A stretch of 63,937 nt of DNA from the NCBI GenBank assembly GCA_964612215.1, contig CAZTEW010000002.1, forward strand, positions 1 to 63,937, read 5' to 3'. The DNA is from an uncultured Gammaproteobacteria bacterium (lineage in GTDB: Bacteria; Patescibacteriota; Microgenomatia; CAZTEW01). The position numbers were made by a program, and so were the translations under genes. How positions within the stretch are numbered: position 1 is the stretch's first letter; the number at the start of each line of letters is the position of its first letter. The notes under the pieces were generated by a model, which had not been told where the DNA came from, did not search any database, and saw only the letters and a list, made by a program, of their open reading frames with translations. Below are positions 108-41,835 of the stretch, one piece after another.

Positions 108-1754
108 ATGGTAGAAAAATATGATAAATTCATCACTAAAGCCAAGACACCTCCGAGGTGGCCGAATGCCTGCCCGCCAGGGCTTTCGGCCGCAGGCCAT
201 GGCAGGCGGGGACTCCTCGGAGGTGGAATTAACAGAAATCACCTCTTTCTTCTCGCGTTTTTAGTCATCGCGGTTTATTTTAACTCCCTGAAAAATGATT
301 TTGTTTCTGATGACATTACTGCCATTGTCCAAAATGAAAACATTGGCAATTTTGGTTATTATTTGCCGCACCACTCGCTCAATTTTCTCCGTTATTTCTT
401 TTATGCTTTAAGCTATCACCTAGCTGGCTTGAATCCTCTAGTCTTCCGATTAATTAATAATCTTCTTTTCCATTTCGGGTCAGTCTTGGTGATTTATTAT
501 TTAATTAATTTCTTCTATGAACCTTTTTTAGCTTTAATTGTCAGCTCGGTTTTTGCTGTTCACCCGATTTTAAGCGAAACCGTGGTTTGGATTTCCGGCG
601 GCGTTCACAGCCAGTATGCTTTTTTTCTTTTTCTCGCTTTGCTCCTTTATTTGCGCAAAAAGCAATTTTGGGCGGTGATTAGTTTTCTTTTGGCTTTATT
701 TACCACTGAAAAGGCAATTATTTTTCCTTTAATTCTTTTAAGTTTTGAGTTTTCTTTCGGCCGGCTGAAAAAGAATTGGCAGCGGCTAATACCCTTCTTT
801 TGCTTAAGCGCTTTCTGGGGAACCGCTATTCTTTCGGCTGGGATTTTAGGCCAAAGAATGGGCGCGCTTCAGTCGCAATTCTACCAGCAACAAGGCTTTT
901 ATAATCCTCTGATTCAAATTCCCACGGCCATCAGCTCTTATTTACAGTTAATTTTCTGGCCAATAAAATTGACTCTTTACCATTCGGAAACAGTCTTTTC
1001 TCAAACCGAATACTTGTTGATGCTCGCCGTCACGCTGGCTTTTTTCTGTCTTGGGTTGTTCTGGCTTTTCAAGAGGTCTCAACGACCTTCTTTCTTCTGG
1101 CTCAGTTTTTTCTTTATTGGTTTGCTACCAATGCTCGCGCCTTTGAAAATCGCCTGGGTAGTCGCCGAACGCTATGTTTATTTCAGCTCACTGGGCATTT
1201 TTGTTCTGGTTGGTCTAGCAATTCAAGGATTCTTTAAATACACCTCCGAGGTGGCCCGCCGGCTGGCGGGGACTCCTCGGAGGTGGAGTCAATATGCGCT
1301 TCTCGCCATTATCCTCATCCTTCTTTCTGTTCGGACAATCATTAGAAATCAGGACTGGCAAAACCAAGACACTCTTTGGCTGTCAGCCGCCAGAACTTCA
1401 CCTTCCAGCCCGCAGAATCATAATAATTTAGGCGATCTCTATGGCCGGCAGGGCAATTACCAGCGAGCCATCGCCGAATTTAAAAAAGCCATTGAACTGC
1501 AGCCTAATTATGCTGATGCCTATCACAATCTTGCCAACACTTACACCCAGATTGGTGAAATGGATTTGGCAATTAGCTATTATCAAAAAGCGCTGGAATT
1601 TAATCCTCAACTCTGGCAATCGCATCAAAACCTAGCGGCGATTTACTATCAGCAAGGTAAAATCGAACTAGCCAGACAAGAATTAGAAAAAGCCGCGGCA
1701 ATTAATCCAGAAAACGCTAATATCCAGCAAGCGCTTGAACTCCTAACACCTTAA
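108..1754 (+). CDS. TPR-repeat polytopic membrane protein, TMTC/PMT_2-like GT-C glycosyltransferase
   Basis: 548-aa ORF with many hydrophobic segments. Acidic first-loop motif NDFVSDD. C-terminal TPR repeats (YGRQGNYQRAIAEFKKAIELQPNYADAYHNLANTY...). Contains two in-frame palindromic elements. Confidence 0.8.
   Translation: MVEKYDKFITKAKTPPRWPNACPPGLSAAGHGRRGLLGGGINRNHLFLLAFLVIAVYFNSLKNDFVSDDITAIVQNENIGNFGYYLPHHSLNFLRYFFYALSYHLAGLNPLVFRLINNLLFHFGSVLVIYYLINFFYEPFLALIVSSVFAVHPILSETVVWISGGVHSQYAFFLFLALLLYLRKKQFWAVISFLLALFTTEKAIIFPLILLSFEFSFGRLKKNWQRLIPFFCLSAFWGTAILSAGILGQRMGALQSQFYQQQGFYNPLIQIPTAISSYLQLIFWPIKLTLYHSETVFSQTEYLLMLAVTLAFFCLGLFWLFKRSQRPSFFWLSFFFIGLLPMLAPLKIAWVVAERYVYFSSLGIFVLVGLAIQGFFKYTSEVARRLAGTPRRWSQYALLAIILILLSVRTIIRNQDWQNQDTLWLSAARTSPSSPQNHNNLGDLYGRQGNYQRAIAEFKKAIELQPNYADAYHNLANTYTQIGEMDLAISYYQKALEFNPQLWQSHQNLAAIYYQQGKIELARQELEKAAAINPENANIQQALELLTP
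148..226. repeat. Type-1 palindromic element (long 79-nt form), in frame in the N-terminus of the TPR/GT-C gene
   Basis: Outer arms CACCTCCGAGGTGG (148-161) and CTCCTCGGAGGTGG (213-226) flank a GC-rich, partly self-complementary core. Translated as TPPRW...GLLGGG. Confidence 0.8.
1241..1286. repeat. Type-1 palindromic element (46 nt), in frame
   Basis: CACCTCCGAGGTGG-CCCGCCggctGGCGGG-gaCTCCTCGGAGGTGG. Translated as TSEVARRLAGTPRRW. Confidence 0.85.
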
Positions 1755-1760
1755 CTCCTA

Positions 1761-1797
1761 ACACCTTAGAGGTGTAATCCTACCTACACCTTGGGTA
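1761..1797. repeat. Left flanking hairpin plus inverted-repeat arm of the Y1 transposase unit
   Basis: ACACCTTAGAGGTGT at 1761-1775 and ACACCTTGGGTA at 1786-1797. Confidence 0.75.
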
Positions 1798-1806
1798 TTA
1801 ATCAAT

Positions 1807-2484
1807 TTATTCTTCTAATAAAAGGTGTTTTATCTCTTCAAGTCTTCTCTGATAATCAGCTTGATCAAAAATAAATTTTTTATAAGACAGAATATCATCA
1901 ACATCATCAAAAATAATCTCTTTACTACAAATCTCTATTTGTGACTTACCCAAATATTCTGGAAAAGAGGAATAAGGATAATTTTTCAGTTCTTTAAAAG
2001 ATTTGACCACATAAGAAGAATATGGATTAAGATGAATATATCTTGAAACATGAAGAAGTTGTGCAGCTGTTTCGATCCTGACAGCCTTGAATTTACCTTG
2101 AAATAAAGGACCGATTCTTTTATTTTTAAAATTAAAATACCGAGTATAGCTATTGGTAAAATTACTCATAAACTTAGAAATGCCATTATCAATTTTTTGC
2201 TTCAAAATTAAATGAAAATGATTGGGCATAAAACAAAAAGCAATGATTTCAGCTAAAAATTCTTTTGCTTCGGTTAATTCTTCCCGAATTTCCATTCTTT
2301 TTTTTTGAGAAATAACTATAAATTGAGCATATCGTAAAGGAAAGTTTTCATTCTGATAATATCTTAATGTTTCGATGGCCCGACTAAAGTCTCTTTTAGT
2401 TTTAAAGGTGGGTTGAGAAGCAACGCCTCTGTTTAAGACGTGATAAAAATTATCAGTAATAAGCGGTATTTTTCTACCTGGCAT
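1807..2484 (-). CDS. IS200/IS605-type Y1 (HUH) transposase, RAYT-like
   Basis: 225 aa. HUH motif in MPNHFHLILK. Catalytic-Tyr region HVSRYIHLNPY. N-terminal YHVLNRG is typical of the Y1_Tnp/COG1943 family. Confidence 0.8.
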   Translation of the reverse strand: MPGRKIPLITDNFYHVLNRGVASQPTFKTKRDFSRAIETLRYYQNENFPLRYAQFIVISQKKRMEIREELTEAKEFLAEIIAFCFMPNHFHLILKQKIDNGISKFMSNFTNSYTRYFNFKNKRIGPLFQGKFKAVRIETAAQLLHVSRYIHLNPYSSYVVKSFKELKNYPYSSFPEYLGKSQIEICSKEIIFDDVDDILSYKKFIFDQADYQRRLEEIKHLLLEE

Positions 2485-2513
2485 ATCTTAATAACTATTA
2501 CTTTACTAAAAAT

Positions 2514-2550
2514 TACCCAAGGTGTCAAGGGTATAACACCTTAGAGGTGT
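2514..2550. repeat. Right flanking inverted-repeat arm plus hairpin of the Y1 transposase unit
   Basis: TACCCAAGGTGT at 2514-2525 and ACACCTTAGAGGTGT at 2536-2550. Confidence 0.75.
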
Positions 2551-2556
2551 TAGGTT

Positions 2557-3546
2557 TTATTGACTTAAGTAGGGAGCAAAAAAACCGACAATAAAAATAA
2601 TGCCATAGACAAAATGAGTTAGAAAGATAGCCGGCCCGACCATCAGGGTCATATTAAGATCTTTTTCCCGCCAATAAACTACCAGGCTGGTCCAAACCAG
2701 CCCCAAAACATAAACACCAACCGCTGTCAGATAAAAAGGCCGCAAACAGCTAAAAAACATCGCTAAAATTGGCGCCACGAGAACGCCTAAAGCAAACAGG
2801 CTCGGCGCCAAATAGCCCAGACGTAATGAGGTTTGCGGTAAAATTCTGGCAAAGTGGCCCCGATGCAAAGCGTAACGGCTGATTTGCTCCAAGTGAGGGC
2901 CGAAAACTTCCCGACGATGATGGTAGACTAAAACTTTCGGGTCATAAATAATTCTCTTTTTCAGTTTTTGGGTGAGATAAAGACAAAGCTTCGTATCTTC
3001 ACCGGACCAGAAATGAGTATTAAAACCACCGGCCTGGAAAAAATATTTTCTTTTAATCAAAAGATTGGCCGTAGGAAAATCATCTACCTGCCGCTGCGGT
3101 CTAATCGCATAACGGTAAGTACCGGCGCCTTCGCTGCCAAAAGCCAAAGACCAAACATAACCGGCTACTTTTTGGCGAAAGTTATCTTGAGGCGGCGTGA
3201 TCATTGGTCCGCAGACGGCAACAATTTCCTTGCCTTCCTGGAAAATTTTCACCGCTTCCCTCAGCCAATTTTTGCTCGGATAAGAATCGTCATCAATAAA
3301 AGCGAGAATTTCACCCTGGGCTTTTTTGGCACCCAGATCGCGCTTATCTGCTGGTCCGGTTTGCGGCCAAGTGGCAATAATTTTCGCTCGCTGCAGTTTC
3401 TCTTTGGTTTTTTTGTCCGGCAGAATAATAATCTCAAAATTCTGATAGCTCTGTTTCAAAAGGGCAGGAATAGTTTCCTGACGCAGATAGTCATTAACCT
3501 CTTTCACCGGAATAATAATCGACACCAACGGCCCTTGTTTTTTCAC
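2557..3546 (-). CDS. GT2-family glycosyltransferase with C-terminal TM segments
   Basis: 329 aa. VSIIIPVKEVNDYL start, DDDSYP (DxD) motif, hydrophobic C-terminal third. GTG start. Confidence 0.8.
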   Translation of the reverse strand: MKKQGPLVSIIIPVKEVNDYLRQETIPALLKQSYQNFEIIILPDKKTKEKLQRAKIIATWPQTGPADKRDLGAKKAQGEILAFIDDDSYPSKNWLREAVKIFQEGKEIVAVCGPMITPPQDNFRQKVAGYVWSLAFGSEGAGTYRYAIRPQRQVDDFPTANLLIKRKYFFQAGGFNTHFWSGEDTKLCLYLTQKLKKRIIYDPKVLVYHHRREVFGPHLEQISRYALHRGHFARILPQTSLRLGYLAPSLFALGVLVAPILAMFFSCLRPFYLTAVGVYVLGLVWTSLVVYWREKDLNMTLMVGPAIFLTHFVYGIIFIVGFFAPYLSQ

Positions 3547-4616: not shown

Positions 4617-5604
4617 AGACTTTAATGGTTTCCTCGGCTGTTTTTTGCCAAGTGAATTTTTTCGCCTGATTAATGCCTTTGGCTGATAATTTTTTCCTGA
4701 GCTGGGTGTCTTTCATTAATTTCTCAATTGCTCCCGCCAGCTGGCGGGGATCAACCATCATCGCCGCCTGACCACAAATCTCTGGCAAGCTCGCTACCGC
4801 CGACGCCACCACTGGTGTACCGCAAGCCATCGCCTCTAAAACTGGCAAACCAAAGCCCTCATAAAAAGACGGCTGAACATAAATCGTTGCTAAGTTATAA
4901 ATCTCCACTAATTCTTGGCTGCTCACCCAGCCTAAGATCTTCACTTTTTCTTTTAAACCAAGCCTTTCGATTAATCGAAGAATCACCTTCGCTTCAGGTA
5001 CCTTGGTTTTTTTCAAGGCCCGGCTGACGAAAACTAAATTGGTTTTTGTTTTGGCAACCGCCCGCAACAAACCATCGACATTTTTATTCCAATTCACGTC
5101 GCCGACGTAGAGAACAAAACGCTCGGGGAGGTTATGTTTTTCTTTAATTGGTAATTTTTTGAATTCTTTTGCGGGCGCCAGATAAACAACGTGGATTTTC
5201 TTTGCCGGAACATGAAGATATGTAATAATATCTTCTTTAGAACTTTCTGAATCAGTAATAATTGCGGCGGTGTTGCGCAGAGAGAGTTCTTGAAGTTGAA
5301 GCTTTACTTCACCCTTAATCCCCCGGGGAAAATGCTGGGGAAAAACCAAAGGAATCACGTCATGAATCGTGACTACTGCCGGCTTTGGTTTTTTAAAAGG
5401 CAAAGTCGGAAAAAAAAGATCAAAATAAGGATAGTGAATCAGGTCAGCGTCAACTGGCAAAGGCCCTTGTTTAATTACCTGAAAAGAAAAGTCTTTTTTT
5501 TTGATTCGCTGCAGTCCGGCTAACAACTGCTCGACATAGACACCCATGCCCCGGCCGCTGTGGGCTGAACTGAATTTTCTCAAGTCAAAGACAACCTTCA
5601 TCAC
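4600..5604 (-). CDS. GT4-family (GT-B, group 1) glycosyltransferase
   Basis: 334 aa. Classical EGFGLPVLEAMACGTPVVAS motif. Confidence 0.85.
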   Translation of the reverse strand: MMKVVFDLRKFSSAHSGRGMGVYVEQLLAGLQRIKKKDFSFQVIKQGPLPVDADLIHYPYFDLFFPTLPFKKPKPAVVTIHDVIPLVFPQHFPRGIKGEVKLQLQELSLRNTAAIITDSESSKEDIITYLHVPAKKIHVVYLAPAKEFKKLPIKEKHNLPERFVLYVGDVNWNKNVDGLLRAVAKTKTNLVFVSRALKKTKVPEAKVILRLIERLGLKEKVKILGWVSSQELVEIYNLATIYVQPSFYEGFGLPVLEAMACGTPVVASAVASLPEICGQAAMMVDPRQLAGAIEKLMKDTQLRKKLSAKGINQAKKFTWQKTAEETIKVYEKVV

Positions 5605-7211
5605 TTGTTTTTAAATAGTAGCAGAACCAACAGCAAAAAACTAATTAATGACAGGCCGTCGCTAAATAAGCGCAGCGGCGTTTCGGTAAAGTTCACCCTG
5701 ATCTTACCTTCTCCTTGAACCGCAGCAATACTAAAAGCGCCGTCTGGTTCGATTTCAAGCAGCTGCTTCTGACCATTCCAGCCAGAGGCTGGTCCGCCTT
5801 TGGTGGAAACCAAAACTTGCCAGCCAGGATAATAATTGATATTAAACCGCAGGCGGTTATTTTCTTGAAACTCAGTTTTTGGTTCTGCTGGTTGATCATG
5901 GTTAGCCCAAATCGTCTGAAAACTGTTGCCTAAAGTCGCTGTCCCCTGAGTCCAGTCCGGATTATTTAAATAAAAACCATTATCTCGAGCCGGATAAATA
6001 ACCGGCCGGCTGTAACGCCAATTACAGAGTAAGACGGCTGCCAACAAAGCCAAGGTCAACCAACGCTTCTTCAGTTTCCCAACCAACCATCCGGCCAGAA
6101 AGCTGGTGATCAGCATCATCAGTGACAACAGCCGCCAGGGATATTGAAGATAGGCCAACCAGGGGAAAAAACGCCAGAGCGGCAAAGAAATTTCCAGCAT
6201 TAAAAAAACTAGAAAAATAAACCAAGTCAAGAAAAAGACCGGCTTACTGGAGAGAATTTTTTGCCGCCAGATGACTACCAGGCTCGTCAGCACCACCAAC
6301 CAATGAACCAAACCGACCTGAAATGACATCCCGTCCATAATGCCGCTGACGGAAAAACCATTCCCCCAGGAAGGAAAGACCAGTTGGAAAAAGGCCGGAA
6401 AGTGGTCGCTATAGTTAATCAGCTCTAGCCCGCGGACGAATCTTTTTTCGACCAAGGCCGGCAGCCAAAAATAGGCGCTTAACCCCAAACCAAGAATTAA
6501 AGACACTCCGGACAGCCACTCCTCGGACGGTGGCAGGCTGAATCCGCCAGCTGGCGGAGAAAGCCATGACTCCTCCGAGGTGGGGCGGCAAAAAACTAAA
6601 TAGCTCACTAAAAATACACTGAAAATCATAGCGAGAATATTGTGAGAAAGAATGAGTAAAGCAAAAAATAAGCCCGCTAGTGCTAACCGGCGCTTCTCCC
6701 AAGCCCAAAGAATCGCTGCTAACCAAACCAAAGCCCAGGCTTCGCCGACCGAACCACGAATGTAAGCATCAACAAAATGATAGGGCGCGTAAAGATAGAA
6801 AACAGCGCCAACTAAGGCTGGCCAGGAACCGAAAAGTTCTTTTAACCAAAGATAAAAAAACAGGGTTGACAAAATTAAGGTTAAAGCCAGGCTGAACTTG
6901 AAAGAATCGGCCAGACTGGCACCCAAAAGCAGAAAAATTTCCGCTCCGTAGTTCGGCAACGGATAGAAAAAATTAAAAAGCGGCGCGCCAAAACCATGAT
7001 CTAAATCCGGCGCCCAGCGGGAAAAGGGTCGGCCGCTGCGAAAATTCTTGTCAAACTGCCAAAAACGGATTAGGTGATACTCGCCATCGTGAGTCGGTAT
7101 AAAACCGGCCCGCCATAAGGGCCAGCTCGCCAGAACCACCAATAGCCCCAGAATTAACCATGGCCAGTATTTTTTCATTGTAAAGCAATAATGCCTAAAT
7201 AATGAATCCAA
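5601..7211 (-). CDS. Family A polytopic membrane protein, putative GT-C glycosyltransferase (PTPS-related/COG5617-like by recollection)
   Basis: 536 aa. THDGEYHLIRF, YFWLPAL and YYPGWQVLV motifs, plus a C-terminal TM anchor. The likely true start is ATG at 7178, which forms an ATGA overlap with the upstream stop. Confidence 0.7.
   Translation of the reverse strand: MDSLFRHYCFTMKKYWPWLILGLLVVLASWPLWRAGFIPTHDGEYHLIRFWQFDKNFRSGRPFSRWAPDLDHGFGAPLFNFFYPLPNYGAEIFLLLGASLADSFKFSLALTLILSTLFFYLWLKELFGSWPALVGAVFYLYAPYHFVDAYIRGSVGEAWALVWLAAILWAWEKRRLALAGLFFALLILSHNILAMIFSVFLVSYLVFCRPTSEESWLSPPAGGFSLPPSEEWLSGVSLILGLGLSAYFWLPALVEKRFVRGLELINYSDHFPAFFQLVFPSWGNGFSVSGIMDGMSFQVGLVHWLVVLTSLVVIWRQKILSSKPVFFLTWFIFLVFLMLEISLPLWRFFPWLAYLQYPWRLLSLMMLITSFLAGWLVGKLKKRWLTLALLAAVLLCNWRYSRPVIYPARDNGFYLNNPDWTQGTATLGNSFQTIWANHDQPAEPKTEFQENNRLRFNINYYPGWQVLVSTKGGPASGWNGQKQLLEIEPDGAFSIAAVQGEGKIRVNFTETPLRLFSDGLSLISFLLLVLLLFKNK
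5782..5806. repeat. Type-3 palindromic micro-insertion (KGGPASGW cassette)
   Basis: CCAGAGGCTGGTCCGCCTTTGGTGG. Encodes STKGGPASGW directly after the YYPGWQVLV motif. Confidence 0.8.
6519..6583. repeat. Type-1 palindromic element (65-nt variant) in frame
   Basis: CTCCTCGGAcGGTGG (6519-6533) ... TCCGCCAGCTGGCGGA (6543-6558) ... CTCCTCCGAGGTGG (6570-6583). Translated as PTSEESWLSPPAGGFSLPPSEEW. Confidence 0.75.
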
Positions 7212-13332: not shown

Positions 13333-14164
13333 TTTTCAATTCCCAGAATTTAAGATAAGCACTCGCCTCAAGCAAGCCGGAAAACAAAGCAAAAATAAAG
13401 CCTAAAAAGCCGTCTAAAAATCCTTTATTGACAAAATAAACCTTGAGAAAGGTCTGCATCGGGACGATCAGTAAATAGCGAAAGCTGTTAAAAAAATTCG
13501 GAGTCAGAGAAGAACGCCAGTGCTCTTGGGCGCGGAGCGAAGAATAAGTATTAAACTTTTTAAGATATTCAGAAAAAGTCGGAAAAGGATAATGGAGTAA
13601 ATGACCCTTTAAATAACCGGTTTTGCCTTTTCCGCCAGAGGCGGATCCGCCTTTGGCGGAGACGACCATCTGTTCATGAACTGATTTGCAGGGCAAATAT
13701 GCTTGGCCGCGTTTTAAGAGGCGGATAACCGCATCCGGATACTGGCCGCCTTTTTTCAACCACCGGCCCAGAAAAAAATTCTTTCGGGGCAGATAATAGG
13801 CCGCTGGCGCGTCCTTTTGCCATGTCCGGCCGGCAATTTCCCTAATTTCTTGAGCCAGTTGCTGATCAACCACTTCATCCGCATCCAACTGGAGAATCCA
13901 ATCGCCTTTGGCCTGATCAATCGCTATTTGTTTATTGATGTGAAAAATGGGTTTATTGGTCGTCACGATAACCTTGGCGCCGTATTTTTTAGCCACTTTG
14001 ACGGTCTGGTCAATTGATTGGCCATCAACCACAATAATCTCATCCGCCAGCTGGCGGACCGCCTCCAAACACGCACCGAGGTTTTTTTCCTCATTAAAGG
14101 TTGCGAGAACAACGCTAATTTTAGATTTCATTTCTTTTGGCGCTTCACGAAAACTTCTTTGCAA
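13316..14164 (-). CDS. GT2-family glycosyltransferase (paralogue of 38591 and 40903)
   Basis: ISVVLATFNEEKNL, IIVVDGQSIDQT and LDADE motifs. The likely start is ATG at 14131, which forms an ATGA overlap with the small upstream ORF. Confidence 0.8.
   Translation of the reverse strand: MQRSFREAPKEMKSKISVVLATFNEEKNLGACLEAVRQLADEIIVVDGQSIDQTVKVAKKYGAKVIVTTNKPIFHINKQIAIDQAKGDWILQLDADEVVDQQLAQEIREIAGRTWQKDAPAAYYLPRKNFFLGRWLKKGGQYPDAVIRLLKRGQAYLPCKSVHEQMVVSAKGGSASGGKGKTGYLKGHLLHYPFPTFSEYLKKFNTYSSLRAQEHWRSSLTPNFFNSFRYLLIVPMQTFLKVYFVNKGFLDGFLGFIFALFSGLLEASAYLKFWELKNAKKK
13632..13660. repeat. Type-3 palindromic micro-insertion in a GT2 gene
   Basis: CCGCCAGAGGCGGATCCGCCTTTGGCGGA. Encodes SAKGGSASGG, which is absent from the two GT2 paralogues at the same position. 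Confidence 0.8.
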
Positions 14165-16011: not shown

Positions 16012-17660
16012 TAAATTTCTCCGACGACAATCGCTGGTTCACCATCTAGAAAATAAACTGTTTTTTGCGGCTGAAAACTTTCCGGAAAGTCCTGGGGTCG
16101 GCCGACGTAGAGAATGGCCTGATTTTTTTCTTCTGTTTCCCATTTTATCGGCCGGAAAACATACTTGCCGAAACCCTGATTTGATCCGGTTTTTTGATAA
16201 GTCAGCGGGTCGAATTGCAAATAAAACAAGAAGAAGATATAAGACTGATCCAGGTGCGGCTGGTTAGAAACAATGATTTTTTGATAATTATCTGTAATTG
16301 CCTGAATCTCGGCCACGGCCGGCTGGTAACCGTATTGCCAGGCTTGGGAATTAAAATAATTCTGCTGGACAAAATACTGGTTGAGAAAATAAACAAAATT
16401 AAAAATAAAAAATAAAAAATAAAAAACTAAAACGCCAAACTTAAAGCTTTTTTTCTTGGTTTGCAGCCACTGCCAGAATTCAATTAAACCCAAGCCAATA
16501 AAAACATAAATCATCGGCAGGAAGCGTAAGGTTCGGACCGCGTGAGGCGAACCACTGCTAAAAGCCGCTGGCACTGACGCCAAAAGAAACCAAGAAAAAA
16601 CCGTTGCTTTGACCCGACGGCTGAATTTCCCAAAAACCAACTGATAAACTCCCCAAAGTAAAAACAAAATTTCCCAAAGATAAAGCAGGCCCATGCCTGG
16701 CGCGTGATGGCGGATCTCATCGCCGGTCAGAAACAACCAGTTAAGATCGAAGTGAGCAACATAACCATTAATAAAACCCGTTAGGTAGGCAATCCTGCGA
16801 TTATCAAAAATCAAACCAAGATAATTTTTTTGCTGATAATCACGCAGTAAGCGATTGGCGCTTTTGGCTAAAAAGGGTGTTTGATCGGCCGCCAAACTCG
16901 TATCTCTAGCTCTCATGAAAATTTCCGGACTGGCAAAAATCAAATAAATGAAGGGCAACACCACCAGCAGGCCGACTATCAGACTGGCCAGCAAATAGCG
17001 CCACGGTATTTTCAGGATCTTTCGCCGCCAAATGAAAAGCATGGCCAAAACCAACAAAGGCGTGAAAACTTTTTCCGCCTGATAAACATAAATGTTCAGG
17101 CCAGCAAAGAAAGAAGCTAAAGCCAAAAACTTTGGCTGGCGCAGGCCTTTTAAAAATAACCAGACCCAAAGAATGCTAAAAAAAACGCCGATGTTAGATT
17201 CAAAAGCCACCCGAGAGAATTGCAAATGCCAAGGACTGATCGCCAATAGAAAGGCTGTTGTTAAAGGCAGTACTAACCACCTCCGAGGTGGCGCTTGACG
17301 ACTCCTCGGAGGTGAAATCTCTGAAAATATCTCTTTCACCAAAAAATAAGTCAACAAAATCGCCAATGTCCCCAGGATGGCGGCCGGCAAACGAACCGTA
17401 AAAACATTAAGCCCAAAAAGCTTTATAAAGGGGATTATTAAATACCCATAAAGAGCCGGCTTGTAGTCACCAAAAGAACGCAGGAAAAGCGGCCAAGACT
17501 GACCATGCTCGTCACGGCCGGTTCGCAATAGCGAAAAAGCATTATAACCCAAAGAGGCTTCGTCCCAATCAGGCGAGGCCGGTACCTGACCTAGCTGCCA
17601 AAAACGGAGCGTCGCTCCTAGAATCAAAATCAAAACTAACCCCAACCACCTTTTTTTCAT
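16011..17660 (-). CDS. Family C PMT/ArnT-like (GT39/GT83, PMT_2-type) membrane glycosyltransferase
   Basis: 549 aa. LRFWQLGQVPASPDWDEASLGYNAFSLLRTGRDEHG first loop with a DE motif, AISPWH motif, polytopic. Confidence 0.8.
   Translation of the reverse strand: MKKRWLGLVLILILGATLRFWQLGQVPASPDWDEASLGYNAFSLLRTGRDEHGQSWPLFLRSFGDYKPALYGYLIIPFIKLFGLNVFTVRLPAAILGTLAILLTYFLVKEIFSEISPPRSRQAPPRRWLVLPLTTAFLLAISPWHLQFSRVAFESNIGVFFSILWVWLFLKGLRQPKFLALASFFAGLNIYVYQAEKVFTPLLVLAMLFIWRRKILKIPWRYLLASLIVGLLVVLPFIYLIFASPEIFMRARDTSLAADQTPFLAKSANRLLRDYQQKNYLGLIFDNRRIAYLTGFINGYVAHFDLNWLFLTGDEIRHHAPGMGLLYLWEILFLLWGVYQLVFGKFSRRVKATVFSWFLLASVPAAFSSGSPHAVRTLRFLPMIYVFIGLGLIEFWQWLQTKKKSFKFGVLVFYFLFFIFNFVYFLNQYFVQQNYFNSQAWQYGYQPAVAEIQAITDNYQKIIVSNQPHLDQSYIFFLFYLQFDPLTYQKTGSNQGFGKYVFRPIKWETEEKNQAILYVGRPQDFPESFQPQKTVYFLDGEPAIVVGEI
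16394..16428. repeat. Period-7 A-rich repeat (AAAAATA x3 plus imperfect flanking units) inside a CDS
   Basis: caaaatt aaaaata aaaaata aaaaata aaaaact. Encodes the TM helix FYFLFFIFNFVYFL. Confidence 0.7.
17277..17314. repeat. Type-1 palindromic element (38-nt form) in frame
   Basis: CCACCTCCGAGGTGGCGCTTGACGACTCCTCGGAGGTG, identical to 20665-20702. Translated as SPPRSRQAPPRRW. Confidence 0.85.
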
Positions 17661-19339
17661 ATTTGAAAAGCCTTTAATATCGGCTCGCCATTTAAAAGTT
17701 TAAATTCCCTTTTAATATCGGCTCCAGAAGGAACATTTTCAGGTAAATCCACATAAAGCATGCCTTTTTCCCAACCAGTGTCTTTGTCAAAATGATATTT
17801 GCCAAAACTTTTCACTTTAACAAACCCCATCACCTCTCTCTCAACTTCAGCTAGCCGGCGAAATTCCTCTGGTGACCGCTTTTGATGAAAAAGTAAATAA
17901 ATATAGGGGCGGCCAAGGGCATTAGTCATCCAAATCCGATCATGTTGACCCTCAACCTCTTGAAGATAAGCCGCAACCTCACGATAACCATATTGCCATT
18001 CCCGAGAATATTCTCTGGGGTAATGAACAATATAACTATGAAGAAAATAAGTAAAATTTAAAATTACAAATGACAAATTAAAAATTAAAAATATAAATTT
18101 AAAATCTCTTTTTATCTGTCTCTTCTCCAGCCATTCTAAAAAACCAATCACGCCTAAAGCGCTGATCATTTGCCAGGTCGGCAAAGTGTTTTCAATCCGC
18201 AGGCTATGCGGCGTTTCCCGGGCCGTCGCCGCCGGCAAAATACCAACCAACAACCAGAAGGGAATTAACCACCAATAACCTGGTTTTCGTTTAAACAAAA
18301 GCAAAATACCAGCGATCAAAAAAGGCAGCTCCCAGAGATAAAGCTGGCCGACGTCCTGAATGGAGAATTTCGGATTGCCGTCGCCCCGAATAAAAAGAAA
18401 AGCCGGATTAAAATGATCAAAATAATGGCGAAGAAATTCGCGAGTATAGCCCCAGCGCCGGTTATGGATAATCTTTGACCACCAAACCAATTCGCCAGCT
18501 GGCGAATCATTCTCCATTTCTTGATTAGCCTGAATAACCACGCTTGAATCAGAAAAGATATTCACTTCGTGGAAACGCAGTTTGGCTTGGGGGGTGAGTA
18601 AAAAAGGAAGTATCGGTAATAAAAAAACAATCCCGGTTAAAGCTGCCAACACCGCCTGTTTCTTTTTCTGCCAAAGTTCTTGGCGGAAACCGACAACCAG
18701 TCCTAAAACCAGCAGCGGCGCTATTATCCGGGCCGTATTAAAAGTGTAAAGAGAGAGAGTAAAACTGATTACCGACGCCAGCAGCCAGCGGCTTGACTGG
18801 CGCATGGCTTTCAAAAAACCAAGTACGCCGGCCACTAAAAAGAAACTGGCTACATTGGCTTCAAAAGCAGCCCGGGAAAGCATGATATGCCACGGACTAA
18901 TTGCCAGCAGCAAAGCAGCAACGGCGCCAAGTAGAGATAGTCTCTCCTCGGAGGTGGCGAAGCAACGACTTCGACTCCTGCAAGGTGGGACGACATGACG
19001 GCAAAGAATCTCTTTTGCCAGCCAGTAGGTCAGCCAAACTGTTAAAACGCCAGCGAAAGCCGAGGCAAACCGGGTCGCGAACGCATTTAATCCGAAAAGC
19101 TTCACCGGTAAAATCGTCAGGTAGGCATAGACTGGCGGCTTAAAATCGCCGAAAGATTCCAAATAATTGAGAGGTAAAAATCTGCCAAACTCATCCCGAC
19201 CATCTAATCCCAGGCTGTAAGCATTGTAACCCCAGGCGGCTTCATCCCAACTTAGAGCCGGCGGATTACTGCCTAACCAACAAAAGCGCAAAGCGCTGGC
19301 CAAAACTAGAATAAAAAATAAAGCGCGGGATTTTTTCAT
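17657..19339 (-). CDS. Family C PMT/ArnT-like membrane glycosyltransferase
   Basis: 560 aa. LRFCWLGSNPPALSWDEAAWGYNAYSLGLDGRDEFG and AISPWH motifs. ATGA overlaps at both ends. Confidence 0.8.
   Translation of the reverse strand: MKKSRALFFILVLASALRFCWLGSNPPALSWDEAAWGYNAYSLGLDGRDEFGRFLPLNYLESFGDFKPPVYAYLTILPVKLFGLNAFATRFASAFAGVLTVWLTYWLAKEILCRHVVPPCRSRSRCFATSEERLSLLGAVAALLLAISPWHIMLSRAAFEANVASFFLVAGVLGFLKAMRQSSRWLLASVISFTLSLYTFNTARIIAPLLVLGLVVGFRQELWQKKKQAVLAALTGIVFLLPILPFLLTPQAKLRFHEVNIFSDSSVVIQANQEMENDSPAGELVWWSKIIHNRRWGYTREFLRHYFDHFNPAFLFIRGDGNPKFSIQDVGQLYLWELPFLIAGILLLFKRKPGYWWLIPFWLLVGILPAATARETPHSLRIENTLPTWQMISALGVIGFLEWLEKRQIKRDFKFIFLIFNLSFVILNFTYFLHSYIVHYPREYSREWQYGYREVAAYLQEVEGQHDRIWMTNALGRPYIYLLFHQKRSPEEFRRLAEVEREVMGFVKVKSFGKYHFDKDTGWEKGMLYVDLPENVPSGADIKREFKLLNGEPILKAFQI
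18061..18102. repeat. Imperfect period-7 repeat (about 6 units) inside a CDS
   Basis: aaattac aaatgac aaattaa aaattaa aaatata aatttaa. Encodes FIFLIFNLSFVILNF. Confidence 0.7.
18944..18988. repeat. Type-1 palindromic element (degenerate second arm) in frame
   Basis: CTCCTCGGAGGTGG-CGAAGcaacgaCTTCG-aCTCCTgCaAGGTGG. Translated as VPPCRSRSRCFATSEE. Confidence 0.7.
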
Positions 19340-21045
19340 GGTTGATATTCTAAAATTATAAAGGCCAGCGAATTATCCGCCCGCCTGATTTCCGCCAATT
19401 GCCGGCTGCCAGGGACTGCCCCGCCGCACAAACCGCTGTTGACATACAAAACTCCTTTTTCACCATTAACATCAGAACGACCATTCTCATCTGTGACCAA
19501 CCTCATAGGACACTCCTCTTGTAAAAACTGATACTTCCCAAAACTGATTCGATCAAAATCAGGAATTGCCGGATTTTTGGTTTCCTGCTGGAAACCCGCT
19601 GGGTCATACTGACTAAAAAACAAAAAATAGATTGTCGGGGCTGATTCGCGATCAGTGATGACTGCTTTTCGATAATCCGGCAGCAGCTGATTGACTTTTT
19701 CAACTAAAGCCTGATAGCCATCCTGACGATCCCAGGGTTGATAAAGAGGCGCGTGGATATAATATTGATGAAGATAGGCGCTAAAATTATAAAAACCAAA
19801 AAGAATAAAAACTATCACAAAAGGCAAAAAAATCCTTTTCCTTTTTAACCAGGTGACCATTTCCAGCCAACCAAAACCAGCCAACCAACAAAAAACAGGC
19901 AAAGCAATTAAAGTCCGCTGGAGATTAGGGACATCATTAAAAGTTAAGGCACTGCCAATCATCGATAAGAAAAGCCAAGCAAAAAGAAGCGTCTTGAGAT
20001 CAACATTTTTCTTAAATATCGTCCAAAGACCAATCAAAAGAAGCGGCAACTCAAAAAGATAGAACAAACCAGTCAAGGGGACTCGATAGCGATTAGGAAA
20101 ACCCTGGTCTGTAAATAAGAAATCAAAAGAAAAGTGAGCAAAGTAATTTCTTAAAAACTGGTTCAAATAACCCATCACTTTGTTATGAAATAACCGGGTA
20201 ACAATGATCGGCAAGGAAGAAACACCATCTTCTCGAATATGGCGTTCAATTAAAAGTTGGGTTTCTTGACCGCCTAAAAGACTAATTGACCGTACCCAAA
20301 GAGAAAGATTCTTGGAAAACATAAACCAAGCTGAAGGCAAAACAATCATCAGGAAGAATAAAAGCCAAACAAAAAACTTTGTTTTTCTCTCTGTCTTAAT
20401 CTTACTAAAAGATAAATAAATCAAAACTGGTAGAAAAAGAGGTAGAAAAGACCGAGCCGCTAAATAAATATATAAGTTAATTCCTATGCAAACAAAAGCA
20501 AGAAAGAGCCATAACCGACTTTTCTTTTTCAAGCCAGAAAAGTAGAGACAGACACCAAGAACAAGAAAAAAAAGAATCAAAACACTCTCAGTTGCGGTCC
20601 GAGAAAGATTAATGTGCCAAGGTGAAATCGCTAGTAGAAAACTAGAAACTAGAGGAAGCGTTAACCACCTCCGAGGTGGCGCTTGACGACTCCTCGGAGG
20701 TGAATTCTCTGGAAATATCTCTCTTGTCAAATAATAAATCGCAACCACTGTCAAAGACCCTAAAAGAGCCGCAGGAAAACGAACCGCAAATTGATTTAAG
20801 CCAAAGATTTTAATCGGAAAAATCGTGAAGTAGCTATAACCTCCTGGGCTATAAACAATAGATTGGAAATTTAAGGGTAAAAAATTAGCGTTAATATCCC
20901 GGCCGGTTTTGAGGATTGAAAATCCATTGTAACCCAAAAAGGCCTCGTCGCGATGAAAACCCAACGGCACCTGTCCCAGCTGCCAAAACCGCAGCCCCAG
21001 CGCTAAAAGCAGAATTAAAGCTAAGGCCGTGATCTCTTTTTTCAC
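19336..21045 (-). CDS. Family C PMT/ArnT-like membrane glycosyltransferase
   Basis: 569 aa. LRFWQLGQVPLGFHRDEAFLGYNGFSILKTGRDINAN and AISPWH motifs. Confidence 0.8.
   Translation of the reverse strand: MKKEITALALILLLALGLRFWQLGQVPLGFHRDEAFLGYNGFSILKTGRDINANFLPLNFQSIVYSPGGYSYFTIFPIKIFGLNQFAVRFPAALLGSLTVVAIYYLTREIFPENSPPRSRQAPPRRWLTLPLVSSFLLAISPWHINLSRTATESVLILFFLVLGVCLYFSGLKKKSRLWLFLAFVCIGINLYIYLAARSFLPLFLPVLIYLSFSKIKTERKTKFFVWLLFFLMIVLPSAWFMFSKNLSLWVRSISLLGGQETQLLIERHIREDGVSSLPIIVTRLFHNKVMGYLNQFLRNYFAHFSFDFLFTDQGFPNRYRVPLTGLFYLFELPLLLIGLWTIFKKNVDLKTLLFAWLFLSMIGSALTFNDVPNLQRTLIALPVFCWLAGFGWLEMVTWLKRKRIFLPFVIVFILFGFYNFSAYLHQYYIHAPLYQPWDRQDGYQALVEKVNQLLPDYRKAVITDRESAPTIYFLFFSQYDPAGFQQETKNPAIPDFDRISFGKYQFLQEECPMRLVTDENGRSDVNGEKGVLYVNSGLCGGAVPGSRQLAEIRRADNSLAFIILEYQP
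20665..20702. repeat. Type-1 palindromic element (38-nt form) in frame
   Basis: A 38/38 match to 17277-17314, while the flanking coding sequence of the two paralogues is visibly diverged. Confidence 0.85.
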
Positions 21046-30592: not shown

Positions 30593-32257
30593 CTATTTTA
30601 ACATGAAAGACTTCAGGCCGCGGCCAACAAGGAATAATAAAGAGAGACAGCTGATGGCTTCGCCTAAGATTCTATCCCAAGTTCTGGTAAATTTAATCAT
30701 CACCTCATGTTCGCCCTCTTCCAATGGGAATTGAATCAGCCCTGATATTAAAGTAATATCAAATTTTCTTTTTTGACCATTCCAGCCAGAGGCTGGTCCG
30801 CCTTTGGTGGAGACCCAGAGCCGCCAACCAGGATAATAAACCGTATTCAGTCGCACCTGACTATCCTCGACTGCTTTGACGCGATATTTTTGCCAATGAG
30901 AATGAACTTCTTCGCTTAAAACCTCAACTTCACCAGCCATGGCTTCTAAAACTGCCTGTCTCGGACCTTCATGTTTACCGCTAACCGACCAGCGAGGCCG
31001 GTATTCATTATAAGAATTGCTGGTTGCTGGTTTATTTAAAAAGTAGTCGTCAGTCAGATCTTGATAAAGATTGACGCGCAGATGGTTGCGGTTGCCATAA
31101 AAAGTTAAAGCCAATAAAAAAATGGTCAGCGGCAAGAAAAGAGTCTTTTTTTTGAGAGCTGTTAAAACCCCGCCGGTGATTAAAGAACTAAAAAGAGTGG
31201 TCAAGGCCAAGTAGCGAAAAGGAAAGTCAATCTTTAGAAAAAAGCTGATCGCTTGCCAATAAGGATTGGCAACAGGCAGCATCAAAAAAACTGCGCTGAA
31301 GAAAAAAACTATCAATAAGCCGAGCAACCGCTGGCGTTGTCGCCACCAAACCAAAACTGCTAAAGCTACCGCCAACCACTGAGCAATGCCAACCTGAAAA
31401 GACATGGCATCGAGTTCGGTCCCGGGATGGGATAAACCATAGCCCCAAGATGAATAGATTAATTGTTTTAGGCTAGGAAAGTGATCGCGATAAAAAACCA
31501 TCATTTCTTGGGAAAACATGGTCTCTTTTTTTTCTACTAGGGCTGGCAGCCAGTAAAAGGCGCTGAGGGCTAGCGCCAGAATTATGAATTTAGAATTATG
31601 AATTATGAATGCTTTTTTATCTTTCCTCTGGTAAAGAAAAAAGATAATCAAAACCAGTAAAAAAGGCAAAAATAAAAAGGCCAGCATCATGTGAGAAAGA
31701 AAAAGACAGGCTAAAAAGATGCCGCCGAAAATAGGCTTTTTTGCCAACACCGCCCAAATCAAAAGCGGCAAGAAGAGAAAACAAACCGCCTCGCCTAAGC
31801 TGGCTCTGACCAAAATGGTGGAAAAGCGCCACGGCGTCCAAAGATAAAAAACAGCGCCGGTAAAAGCTGCCAATCGGTTTGACCAAAGTTTTTTTTGCGT
31901 CAAATACATCGCCAGGCCGGACAAAACATAAGTCAGAATAAAAACCGCCTTAATTGAATCAATAAACGAAAGTCCTATTAAATGAAAAAAAGTGCCTAAA
32001 TAAAAAGGGAAGCGGTAGATGAAAATAAAAAGAGGGTAACCATAGCCATCAAAAGCCGGTGGGCCGGCCCAGCGCACCGGCAGCTGACCATCCTTTAATC
32101 CTTTGACAAAATGAATTAGTCTGATAACTTGATGTTCGCCGTCGTGGCTGGTATAAAAGCCCGGCTGAAAAAGGGCTTTCACACCAAAAACACCAATGAG
32201 AAGCAATAAAATTAAAGCCAGCCAATCAATCTTTTTCATGAAAAAACCAATGTTCAA
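30593..32257 (-). CDS. Family A polytopic membrane protein, putative GT-C glycosyltransferase
   Basis: 554 aa. SHDGEHQVIRL, AFYWLPAL and VYYPGWRLWV motifs. Alternative ATG at 32239. Confidence 0.7.
   Translation of the reverse strand: MNIGFFMKKIDWLALILLLLIGVFGVKALFQPGFYTSHDGEHQVIRLIHFVKGLKDGQLPVRWAGPPAFDGYGYPLFIFIYRFPFYLGTFFHLIGLSFIDSIKAVFILTYVLSGLAMYLTQKKLWSNRLAAFTGAVFYLWTPWRFSTILVRASLGEAVCFLFLPLLIWAVLAKKPIFGGIFLACLFLSHMMLAFLFLPFLLVLIIFFLYQRKDKKAFIIHNSKFIILALALSAFYWLPALVEKKETMFSQEMMVFYRDHFPSLKQLIYSSWGYGLSHPGTELDAMSFQVGIAQWLAVALAVLVWWRQRQRLLGLLIVFFFSAVFLMLPVANPYWQAISFFLKIDFPFRYLALTTLFSSLITGGVLTALKKKTLFLPLTIFLLALTFYGNRNHLRVNLYQDLTDDYFLNKPATSNSYNEYRPRWSVSGKHEGPRQAVLEAMAGEVEVLSEEVHSHWQKYRVKAVEDSQVRLNTVYYPGWRLWVSTKGGPASGWNGQKRKFDITLISGLIQFPLEEGEHEVMIKFTRTWDRILGEAISCLSLLFLVGRGLKSFMLK
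30786..30810. repeat. Type-3 palindromic micro-insertion (KGGPASGW cassette)
   Basis: CCAGAGGCTGGTCCGCCTTTGGTGG, identical to 5782-5806. Encodes STKGGPASGW. Confidence 0.8.
31577..31610. repeat. Period-7 repeat block containing the 28-nt string CAGAATTATGAATTTAGAATTATGAATT
   Basis: aattatg aatttag aattatg aattatg. Encodes FIIHNSKFIIL before the YWLPAL motif. Confidence 0.85.
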
Positions 32258-40945: not shown

Positions 40946-41835
40946 TTTCCCTCCTTAGTCCAACTATTAATTAACCAGTGGTGTAATTCAGCGCCCATTT
41001 GTTTAAATTCTTTAGCGACTGCCTTTAAAAATTCTTTTTCTTGACTGGGAGGAAAGCCTTGTTTTTCCCAAATCTTGGCAAAAACGACCAAAGCATAAAA
41101 AGACTGCAGCAGCGCCAGCACCAAACCATGAAGGCCATCTTTAAAACCTTCCCGGGCAAAGAAAACCGAAAGAAAATCACGGGCCGGCATTCTGATGGCA
41201 TCATACCAATAGACTTTTTGACCGCGCTGCCGCAGACCTTTAACTTCATCCTCGGTATAAATCCGGTCCATCTTTTGGATAAACTGGGAAACGGTTTGGT
41301 AATTATGGTGCAGCAGCGGCGAGGTTAATTTCGCGGTTTCTCCCTGGACTTTGATTTTTTCATGAACATGCTGGCAGGGAAATTTCCCCTTGTTCCGCTG
41401 GAAAAGCCGCAGCTGATAATCCGGCCACCAGAGACCGTGTTGAATCCACTTACCAAAAATAATATTCTGCCGCGGCATCTCATAGCCTACTGGTAGTCTC
41501 TCCTCCGAGGTGGCCCGCCGACGAGGCGGGACTCCTCGGAGGTGGGACGACATTTCAGCGCTCAGCGCTGGTGTCACCCGTTCGTCGCCATCGAGGTTAA
41601 GAATCCAATCACCAGTCGCCTTTTCAAAGCCGAAGTTTTTGTTTTTATTAAGCATCGCTAGATTAGGTTTCACAAAAACCTTATTTGTGTATTGCCTGGC
41701 AATCGCCGCGGTTTTATCGGTCGAAGAGTTGTCAACAACAATCACCTCGTCCGCCAAGCCGCGGACCGATTCTAAACAGTCAGCTAAATTATTTTCTTCG
41801 TTAAAAACAGAAACCACTACCGAAATCTTCTTCAT
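40903..41835 (-). CDS. GT2-family glycosyltransferase (paralogue of 13316 and 38591)
   Basis: 310 aa. ISVVVSVFNEENNL, VIVVDNSSTDKT and LDGDE motifs. Confidence 0.8.
   Translation of the reverse strand: MKKISVVVSVFNEENNLADCLESVRGLADEVIVVDNSSTDKTAAIARQYTNKVFVKPNLAMLNKNKNFGFEKATGDWILNLDGDERVTPALSAEMSSHLRGVPPRRRATSEERLPVGYEMPRQNIIFGKWIQHGLWWPDYQLRLFQRNKGKFPCQHVHEKIKVQGETAKLTSPLLHHNYQTVSQFIQKMDRIYTEDEVKGLRQRGQKVYWYDAIRMPARDFLSVFFAREGFKDGLHGLVLALLQSFYALVVFAKIWEKQGFPPSQEKEFLKAVAKEFKQMGAELHHWLINSWTKEGKWWQRFSKSFFGRF
41500..41545. repeat. Type-1 palindromic element (46-nt canonical form) in frame
   Basis: CTCCTCCGAGGTGG-CCCGCCgacgaGGCGGG-aCTCCTCGGAGGTGG. A 46/46 match to 45882-45927, which lies in an unrelated gene. 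Confidence 0.9.

Follow-up and report, generated by a model that had tools for sequence, protein, structure and literature searches.

The 802 bp at positions 1755-2556 of the 63,937-nucleotide stretch of contig CAZTEW010000002.1 that was analysed here (below, the window) contain a gene for a Y1 HUH nuclease/transposase with a hairpin on each of its sides. The locus is probably a resident cassette, similar in kind to REPtrons and TIRtrons, of a large family of class 2 Y1 HUH proteins of the Patescibacteria (Microgenomates), and the palindromes termed type 1, which are dispersed within genes of the same window, would go back to a module that belongs to a different lineage of the family. The part of this reading that concerns the locus itself, namely a cassette of the class of the REP-associated tyrosine transposases (RAYT; REP, repetitive extragenic palindromic sequence) in which enzyme and hairpins are cognate to each other, is considered highly probable.

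The Y1 protein and its flanking module

The interval is the entire gap between the stop codons of gene 108-1754 on the plus strand (TPR/PMT-like) and gene 2557-3546 on the minus strand (GT2 glycosyltransferase). The Y1 gene at 1807-2484 on the minus strand encodes a protein of 225 aa with the sequences PNHFHLIL and SRYIHLNPY, and the Pfam model Y1_Tnp matched residues 71-151 with 41.5 bits (cut-off 23), so that the open reading frame (ORF) with HUH and tyrosine motifs reported in the initial annotation was borne out. The motif set is NHFH, GPLFQG (with the FQ pair) and YIHLNP, in which the catalytic tyrosine carries the class 2 signature Y-x3-NP. In an alignment of 31 homologues H89, H91 and Y149 were invariant, and so were the serine pair S172 and S173 and much of the remaining C-terminal tail. 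This tail was modelled as helices with low confidence, and the Pfam scan returned Y1_Tnp only and no helix-turn-helix (HTH) domain in the tail. The NCBIfam model for IS200 (NF033573) scored 14.5 bits, with a cut-off of 55, and was surpassed by the NCBIfam RAYT model with 49.3 bits. A search of the PDB by sequence gave nothing significant (4er8 at E = 0.26) and the structural placement came from the fold search only, in which the AlphaFold model matched TnpAREP (4er8) best, followed by the transposases of IS200, IS608 and ISDra2. To judge from these sequence features, the protein is of the RAYT class (class 2) rather than of the IS200 type. The TnpAY1 proteins of subclass 2.1 have been described with the motifs NH[YF]H, FQ and Y[IV]HLNP, a length of about 238 aa and an SS-bearing tail (Table 1, Quentin et al. 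2018, PMC6006769); this subclass equals RAYT group 1 of Bertels et al. 2017 (PMC5581495) and covers most of the TIRYTs of Di Nocera et al. 2013 (PMC3733652). By its motifs, the present family would stand nearest to subclass 2.1, group 1 or TIRYT.

The homologue search returned 4,543 matches, nearly all of about 225 aa and from Microgenomates/Patescibacteria, with 72% identity for the best non-self match. Among species-representative genomes at least 586 loci with a Y1 gene were counted, and a few genomes contained two copies. In at least four genomes the two genes are divergent (48-51% identical), and each pair carries different hairpin types; the closest intragenomic pair (L051 4942-5613 and 10976-11656; loci are denoted by L and a number) is 76% identical, lies 5.3 kb apart and has its own flanking modules at each gene. 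The family is thus present with one or two divergent Y1 genes per genome, and with one in the window, where no second Y1-like sequence was detected with 84 family queries (tblastn, best E = 0.017). The earlier statement that this is the only transposase-like gene of the window accordingly holds for Y1 homologues, other transposase families having been outside the scan. Many records of metagenome-assembled genomes titled 'uncultured Gammaproteobacteria/Pseudomonadales' carry the family; these titles may be unreliable, and the named matches were otherwise all Patescibacteria (Microgenomates). In the literature no specific description of this Y1 family in Patescibacteria was found.

The hairpin ACACCT-TAG-AGGTGT is present at 1761-1775 and at 2536-2550, with equal orientation of the loop on the plus strand. 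In gene orientation (minus strand) the upstream hairpin, H, at 2536-2550 reads ACACCT-CTA-AGGTGT; its stem lengthens to 8 bp (TAACACCT/AGGTGTTA) and folds. The downstream H at 1761-1775 (minus strand) is identical to it and coincides in part with the 3' end region of gene 108-1754, which is convergent with the Y1 gene. A 12-mer lies between each hairpin and the gene, both on the minus strand: a-x at 2514-2525 upstream (ACACCTTGGGTA in gene orientation), which repeats the 5' arm of H and forms TTGACA with the preceding TTG, and x'-a' at 1786-1797 downstream (TACCCAAGGTGT), its exact inverted partner. On the plus strand ACACCTTGGGTA is read at 1786-1797 and TACCCAAGGTGT at 2514-2525. Both the bracketing hairpins and the inverted 12-mer pair had been described in the initial annotation and were recovered at these positions. 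The pattern CACCTNNNAGGTG (CACCT-N3-AGGTG) occurs six times in the window at an expectation of 0.03, a number reached in none of 100 shuffles; two of the six hairpins flank the Y1 gene and four belong to dispersed intragenic elements. A tandem duplication of 15 nt, CTCCTAACACCTTA(A/G), at 1740-1754 and 1755-1769 (plus strand) had been missed earlier. It comprises the outer flank, the outer arm of H and two loop bases, and gene 108-1754 has its TAA stop codon in the first of the two copies.

In order to compare the flanks across the family, they were read at 83 genome loci and 39 metagenome loci (about 120 loci of Patescibacteria). The same plan was found in most of them, which in gene orientation consists of H, about 10 nt ending in TTG, a-x, the gene, x'-a', about 10 nt and H again, where H is a hairpin of 5-9 bp (a-loop-a') and the 12-mers repeat an arm of H. 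At some loci (L017, L024, L010) a complete palindromic module, x'a'-spacer-H-spacer-ax, is present on both sides and folds into an outer stem of 11-12 bp that encloses the H hairpin (z = -5.7 and -6.6). The stems vary by genome (CACCT, CACCC, GATCC, CACAC, AACC), and relatives of 30-45% identity have longer, unrelated hairpins. With a finder restricted to perfect stems, the layout was recovered at only about one locus in two, since loops of 5 nt or a single stem mismatch are common. A laxer three-part finder had a background of 20% in AT-rich DNA and was therefore used only with geometric filters and permutation controls.

Covariation statistics were calculated for 31 loci with clean geometry and were compared with permutation controls. 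The hairpin loop was the same at both ends in 29 of the 31 loci, where about 6 were expected. An arm of H matched the 'a' of a-x at 4.97 of 5 positions (4.16 ± 0.09 permuted), and x and x' were complementary at 4.13 of 6 positions (2.73 ± 0.22 permuted, with a maximum of 3.55 over 2,000 permutations). The hairpin also follows the protein: pairs of proteins with a shared hairpin type were 60.8% identical and other pairs 49.9%, a difference found in none of 1,000 permutations. These properties are as expected of an enzyme and its recognition site, and the flanking hairpins are very probably its cognate sites. The matching loops were direct in 14 loci and inverted in 15, and even the syntenic pair formed by the window and L003 differs in loop sense, with CTA in the downstream hairpin of the window and TAG in that of L003; the loop therefore appears to flip frequently.

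The upstream half-module contains a promoter-like site at 2500-2528 (minus strand) consisting of TTGACA, 17 nt and TAAAGT with 10 of 12 matches, and thus doubles as the predicted promoter of the gene. Across the family, the TTG and the 'a' of a-x form TTGACA in 27 of 34 loci, and a TAnnnT box follows the TTG hexamer after 16-18 nt in 24 of 34 loci, compared to 5.2 in a shifted control. The distance from the end of this box to the ATG is mostly 6-9 nt, which points to leaderless transcripts. Regulation of this promoter by the Y1 enzyme is conceivable. On the plus strand, H at 2534-2552 together with its T-rich tail scores as terminator-like.

Intragenic type-1 palindromes

The window contains 14 arms of the form NC(A/T)CCTC(C/G)GAGGTG(G/A) in eight elements, all of which are located within long ORFs and share one polarity on a stretch of uniformly negative GC skew. 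Long forms are found at 147-226 (plus strand; arms ACACCTCCGAGGTGG and ACTCCTCGGAGGTGG, related to the CCG-type modules described below and not to the CTA type of the window's own H), at 41499-41545 (plus strand; inner hairpin CCCGCC...GGCGGG) and at 45882-45928 (plus strand). The element at 1240-1286 (plus strand) in gene 108-1754 forms a long hairpin (z = -7.4), and the orthologue in L003 is shorter by about 10 residues exactly here. The short forms lie at 17277-17315 (plus strand; H(CCG), CGCTTGACG and ACTCCTCGGAGGTGA, z = -7.1) and at 20665-20703 (plus strand), the latter being a paralogous copy of the former with 75% identity over the surrounding 165 nt. Degenerate arms are found at 18943-18988 (plus strand), and at 6544-6583 (plus strand) the palindrome CCGCCAGCTGGCGG is joined to a single type-1 arm, ACTCCTCCGAGGTGG.

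The dispersed arms had earlier been read as CCACCT-C(C/G)G-AGGTGG, with the same stem as the hairpins of the Y1 gene. The perfect CACCT/AGGTG stem was found in 4 of the 14 arms and the form CCACCT...AGGTGG in 2 of 14, but the other 10 arms read CTCCT...AGGTG and have one stem mismatch. A relationship of the arms to hairpins of Y1 genes was nevertheless upheld, with another branch of the family as the partner. The perfect arm CACCTCCGAGGTG (CACCT-CCG-AGGTG) is identical to the hairpin that flanks the Y1 genes of L024, L038, L043, L046 and L086, here called CCG-type. The element at 17277-17315 aligns with the H-spacer-a-x half-module of CCG-type genes, and both short forms share with the upstream half-modules of these genes a spacer of about 10 nt with TTGAC, followed by AC(A/T)CCTCGG as a second motif. 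At L024:2034 a single hybrid unit is made up of x'a', H(CCG), a hairpin CCGCC...GGCGG and a-x. Type-1-like units were also found in L030, L068 and L115, with hybrid forms listed at L030 and L068 too. On balance, homology between the type-1 elements and the family modules is favoured, with some reserve.

Several results weigh against this link. Besides the 10 mismatched arms, no CCG-type Y1 gene and no 'master' RAYT flanked by type-1 (CCG) arms was visible in the window, CCG-type loci other than L024 showed no extra copies, and the likeness of the second type-1 arm to a-x depends on the palindrome itself. As for the CCG-type proteins, they are not a tight clade, since they are only 48-55% identical to one another. 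In one metagenome scan that was seeded with them, most of the loci recovered had hairpins of other types, and L086 was the only CCG-type locus added.

The likeness of the type-1 arms to the Y1 hairpins could accordingly be coincidental, the arms being independent CCTC-S-GAGG palindromes that were spread otherwise or by gene duplication within the glycosyltransferase array. Such an origin would fit the CTCCT sequence in place of CACCT in most arms, the GC hairpin of the long forms, which is absent from the Y1 modules, and the position of the 17277 and 20665 copies in duplicated genes. It would also fit the rarity of type-1 elements in 1.8 Mb of Y1-bearing contigs and the fact that the likeness was noticed after the event, among several palindrome families. 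Against it stand a 13-mer that is identical to the hairpin at five Y1 genes, the agreement of the short forms in spacer length, TTGAC and second motif, and the L024:2034 hybrid; moreover, the L003 orthologue is shorter by some 10 residues at 1240-1286, which is consistent with an insertion rather than with an inherited motif. Coincidence is therefore assigned the minor share of the probability, although it is the strongest of the alternatives considered.

It had further been proposed that the enzyme encoded in the window, or a relative elsewhere in the genome, mobilises or once mobilised the intragenic elements, which have the CACCT/AGGTG stem with a different loop, in a REP/RAYT system with REPs inside ORFs. 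The window enzyme would then have to recognise the stem irrespective of the loop. The 5-bp stem is identical in four arms and differs at one position in ten, the gene is the sole Y1 gene found in 64 kb, and one polarity of eight elements on a single replichore is as for strand-specific single-strand transposition. The hairpin type, loop included, tracks the protein clade, however, and the own loop of the window gene is CTA. All 12 other CTA-type loci (about 190 kb) encode closer relatives of the window protein (55-68% identity, as compared to 51-55% for the four CCG-type proteins scored, those of L024, L038, L043 and L046) and contain one type-1 arm, as compared to 14 in the 64-kb window; a further 0.57 Mb of family loci contain almost none. 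In 1.3 Mb around loci whose own H has a CACCT stem, 20 further CACCT-stem hairpins were found, of which 12 have the local loop, and the window supplies 4 of the 8 that do not. Extra or degenerate copies of the gene's own CTA hairpin or 12-mer were absent from the 64-kb window. Mobilisation of the type-1 elements by the product of this gene is considered unlikely on these grounds; the elements were more likely mobilised by a paralogue of the CCG type, which either lies elsewhere in the genome or has been lost. The earlier alternative of a relative elsewhere in the genome may thus apply, and at least four genomes do have two divergent Y1 genes with different hairpin types. The preferred reading is that a CCG-type module expanded in this lineage and that the type-1 elements are its REPIN-like doublets.

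Other repeats were observed in the same array. The 14-mer palindrome CCGCCAGCTGGCGG has five identical copies in ORFs, at 4734, 6544, 14044, 15647 and 44736; the copy at 6544 is the one that adjoins a type-1 arm, and related CCGCC-N-GGCGG hairpins form the core of the long type-1 elements. A composite palindrome, CCAGCCAGAGGCTGG-TCCGCCTTTGGCGGA, is present in five paralogous genes (5768-5810, 13621-13663, 30772-30814, 45062-45104 and 53977-54019) and could represent another family of intragenic palindromes, or else a conserved motif of the coding sequence. AT-rich repeats with a periodicity of 7 nt (GAATTATGAATT...) are located at gene boundaries (15333, 31576, 37238, 44256, 56945). From 2557 to 63880 nearly all genes are co-oriented on the minus strand, with GC skew negative throughout, and many of them are paralogous ORFs of 500-800 aa, of which the few examined look glycosyltransferase/PMT-like.

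Inheritance, gain and loss of the cassette

L003 is syntenic with the window and has the same two neighbours (identities of 68% for Y1, 60% for GT2 and 50% for TPR-PMT), and at both loci the downstream hairpin extends into the 3' end of the TPR gene. The cassette has therefore been at this site for a long time, with its flanks maintained. As to the neighbouring protein itself, the TPR/PMT protein of the window is without one C-terminal TPR unit of the L003 orthologue (L003 10702-12249), and the codons of its last residues lie in the duplicated hairpin half-site.

Gain or loss was observed between rpsG and fusA. L001 and L171 both have a Y1 gene at this site (Y1 80%, EF-G 81% identical), and L166, a closer relative (EF-G 92%), reads rpsG-AATCT-fusA with nothing inserted. 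The insert of L001 (AATCT/TCCACCTTAGAGGTGGAA, TCCACCT start) begins precisely at H and has the last hairpin at its opposite end. The passenger gene varies, with cinA in L001, an HD-domain gene in L171 and a PIN toxin pair in a third relative. The site appears as a hotspot of gain and loss (L001 8500-10760; L171 4477-6280; L169 3132-3830; L166 1302-1308, 5 nt only), and its expanded versions have a common leader of about 100 nt with promoter and hairpin before fusA. Most other Y1 loci lie in unrelated genomic contexts. Taken together, the sequences indicate that the cassette is gained or lost as an H-bounded unit and is mostly inherited vertically, which is a RAYT-like and not an IS-like behaviour. 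Two further candidates were rejected. A target-site duplication was considered for AAAATC, which flanks the L001 insert; nothing comparable was found in the window or in L171, and it was treated as chance. Integration of the cassette into the loop of a pre-existing hairpin, such as the terminator-like CCTAACACCT-TAG-AGGTGTTAGG assembled from the window flanks, was unsupported: the one empty site found, rpsG-AATCT-fusA, which may not be the true pre-insertion state, contains no hairpin, and the insert starts at a hairpin foot.

Copies of the module without the gene were also found. About 0.67 Mb of flanking DNA contained 12 further exact copies of the local hairpin, in addition to the count in 1.3 Mb given above. 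Among the distant hairpins are complete solo modules in L020 (one) and L024 (two), solo half modules in L001 (upstream of cinA), L010, L022, L032 and L048, and one inverted solo doublet in L041. The low solo density is comparable to the group 1 flanking 16-mers, for which about 12 occurrences were reported (PMC5581495). Tandem repeats of the outer half-site, in two or three copies, were found upstream in 10 of 41 cases and downstream in 8 of 46, the window being one example; the repeated unit consists of the outer flank, the outer arm and one or two loop bases. Such duplications occur in distant relatives, too (L129, L096), and their junctions fall in or beside the loop. They may be the footprint of nicking and rejoining, or of replication slippage induced by the hairpin.

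An ordinary autonomous insertion sequence (IS) of the IS200/IS605 type, selfish and unrelated to the dispersed palindromes, would have the hairpins as its subterminal ends. It would account for a hairpin at each end in the same strand orientation in the window, for the different contexts of nearly all loci, for the presence or absence, among close relatives, of an insert bounded by H at the rpsG-fusA site, and for the two neighbouring copies in L051. The protein, on the other hand, has Y-x3-NP instead of Y-x3-Q and 225 aa with a conserved tail instead of the approximately 150 aa of IS200, and its score in the IS200 hidden Markov model is far below the cut-off. Near-identical copies were not found among the 4,543 matches, and even paralogues within one genome are mostly as divergent as given above. 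The gene is syntenic with a housekeeping-like divergence, and it is accompanied by 12-bp inverted repeats, which are absent in IS200/IS605. An insertion sequence of this kind is thus very improbable. Equally improbable is a purely regulatory role of the hairpins (as operator, insulator or terminator) for a housekeeping-like nuclease without any part in recombination, for which the promoter inside the upstream module, the terminator-like H at 2534-2552 and the vertical inheritance of the gene speak, but against which stand the recurrence of the hairpin at the two ends, with equal loops in 29 of 31 loci, the solo and half modules elsewhere, the H-bounded cassette at a site that is empty in a close relative, the half-site duplications at the outer edges and the missing T tract of most hairpins.

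The reading as a cognate RAYT-class cassette has to be weighed against results that do not favour it. The NCBIfam model REP_Tyr_transpos (NF047646) scored 49.3 bits, below its curated cut-off of 80, and the AlphaFold model is of moderate confidence (pLDDT, predicted local distance difference test, 64). The GT[AG]G tetranucleotide was not seen at the hairpin foot (feet are ..CTA/ACACCT, ..TT/CCACCT and similar). No dispersed copies of the CTA hairpin of this gene were found in the window, and within the family a solo copy occurs only about once per 56-65 kb, far under classic REP densities. The complete solo modules could be remnants comparable to solo long terminal repeats (LTRs), i.e. products of recombination between the direct modules of a lost cassette. 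The position of cutting is ambiguous, as the half-site duplications point to the loop and the L001/L166 junction puts the whole hairpin inside the insert. The earlier description of the locus as a REP/RAYT system therefore stands as far as a RAYT-class protein and cognate hairpins are concerned, but not with respect to the foot and to high copy number; as it has neither a GT[AG]G foot nor a palindrome dispersed in many copies, it does not qualify as a canonical REP/RAYT locus.

Proposed mechanism and comparison with known systems

By analogy with TnpAREP and the TnpA of IS608, the enzyme would bind H as a single-strand hairpin, the stem and loop of which would set its specificity. It would then cut at or in the hairpin, a step which is likewise proposed by analogy and to which the ambiguous cut position is an objection, and through this cut the H-bounded cassette and solo modules could on rare occasions be excised, inserted or copied. 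The Y1 gene itself would mostly be inherited vertically under strong purifying selection. The type-1 palindromes would be inverted doublets of the CCG-loop H from the module of another family lineage, presumably amplified by the CCG-type paralogue; a cross-reaction of the window enzyme on them is less likely. A wider proposal can be made only tentatively and is doubtful at present: a domesticated branch of group 1 / subclass 2.1 across the Patescibacteria, equipped with a cognate composite hairpin and a portable promoter, which is nicked and leaves half-site footprints, and the doublets of which were copied in frame into many surface glycosyltransferase genes in some lineages, the present one among them, and diversify proteins in reduced genomes.

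Of the two published surveys, one ranks group 1 first in size among the RAYT groups and the other ranks subclass 2.1 second among the TnpAY1 subclasses, and no repeats associated with it were found in them. The branch in Patescibacteria, with at least 586 loci in species-representative genomes and more than 4,500 proteins, has a clearly co-evolving DNA partner. This family can diverge about as slowly as EF-G, yet it is gained or lost at defined sites. The stem and loop of the hairpin would be a natural specificity code, and the modules are a candidate origin for in-frame palindromic insertions in genes of very small genomes. If their promoters are active, solo modules could rewire the expression of neighbouring genes.

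A tripartite promoter-bearing module with half-site duplications was not found described in the literature searched, and the closest kinds are the REPtron and the TIRtron / subclass 2.1. More distant are the elements of the IS200/IS605 family (IS608, ISDra2), with which the cassette shares the Y1 HUH fold, end hairpins that can share a strand, an occupied and an empty site in close relatives, the lack of a certain target duplication and, in the intragenic elements, the strand/replichore polarity. It differs from them by Y-x3-NP and NHFH in place of Y-x3-Q and DH[VI]H, by the absence of tnpB, by copies that are not near-identical, by a hairpin that is terminal and not subterminal at the one mapped junction (L001/L166), by the 12-bp inverted repeats and by long-term synteny. 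The type-1 elements resemble intragenic REPs, the Rickettsia palindromic elements (RPE) and REPINs in that they are inverted doublets forming long hairpins (z of about -7) and lie in frame in ORFs without disrupting them, one of them being absent from the L003 orthologue. Unlike REPINs, all copies seen are intragenic, and their arms equal the hairpin of a different Y1 clade from that of the adjacent gene.

With the E. coli TnpAREP REPtron (subclass 2.2; 4er8), the best structural match, the locus has in common a single-copy Y1 HUH enzyme with Y-x3-NP, cognate hairpins that bracket the gene and co-evolve with the protein, vertical inheritance, and divergent paralogues with their own hairpin families. 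In contrast to the REPtron, the present family is without the GT[AG]G foot and has a tripartite module with arm-repeating 12-mers and a built-in promoter. Solo copies amount to about 1 per 60 kb instead of hundreds per genome, with the own hairpin undispersed in the window, and the protein of 225 aa with its conserved C-terminal tail is under the NCBIfam cut-off. The published TIRtron consensus GGGGWSAS is absent from the window flanks, and no HTH Pfam domain is present in the tail. Subclass 2.1 has been reported without REP-like structures near the gene (PMC6006769), whereas a short hairpin that covaries with the 12-mers was found here at both ends in most loci examined. The TIRtron/TIRYT kind (PMC3733652), i.e. 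subclass 2.1 (PMC6006769) or group 1 (PMC5581495), nonetheless agrees with the present family in the motif set, the length of about 230 aa and the SS tail, in about 1.9 copies per genome at about 49% identity, in the flanking inverted repeats (represented here by the 12-mers), and in that some of these flanking repeats are self-complementary and belong to small repeat families.

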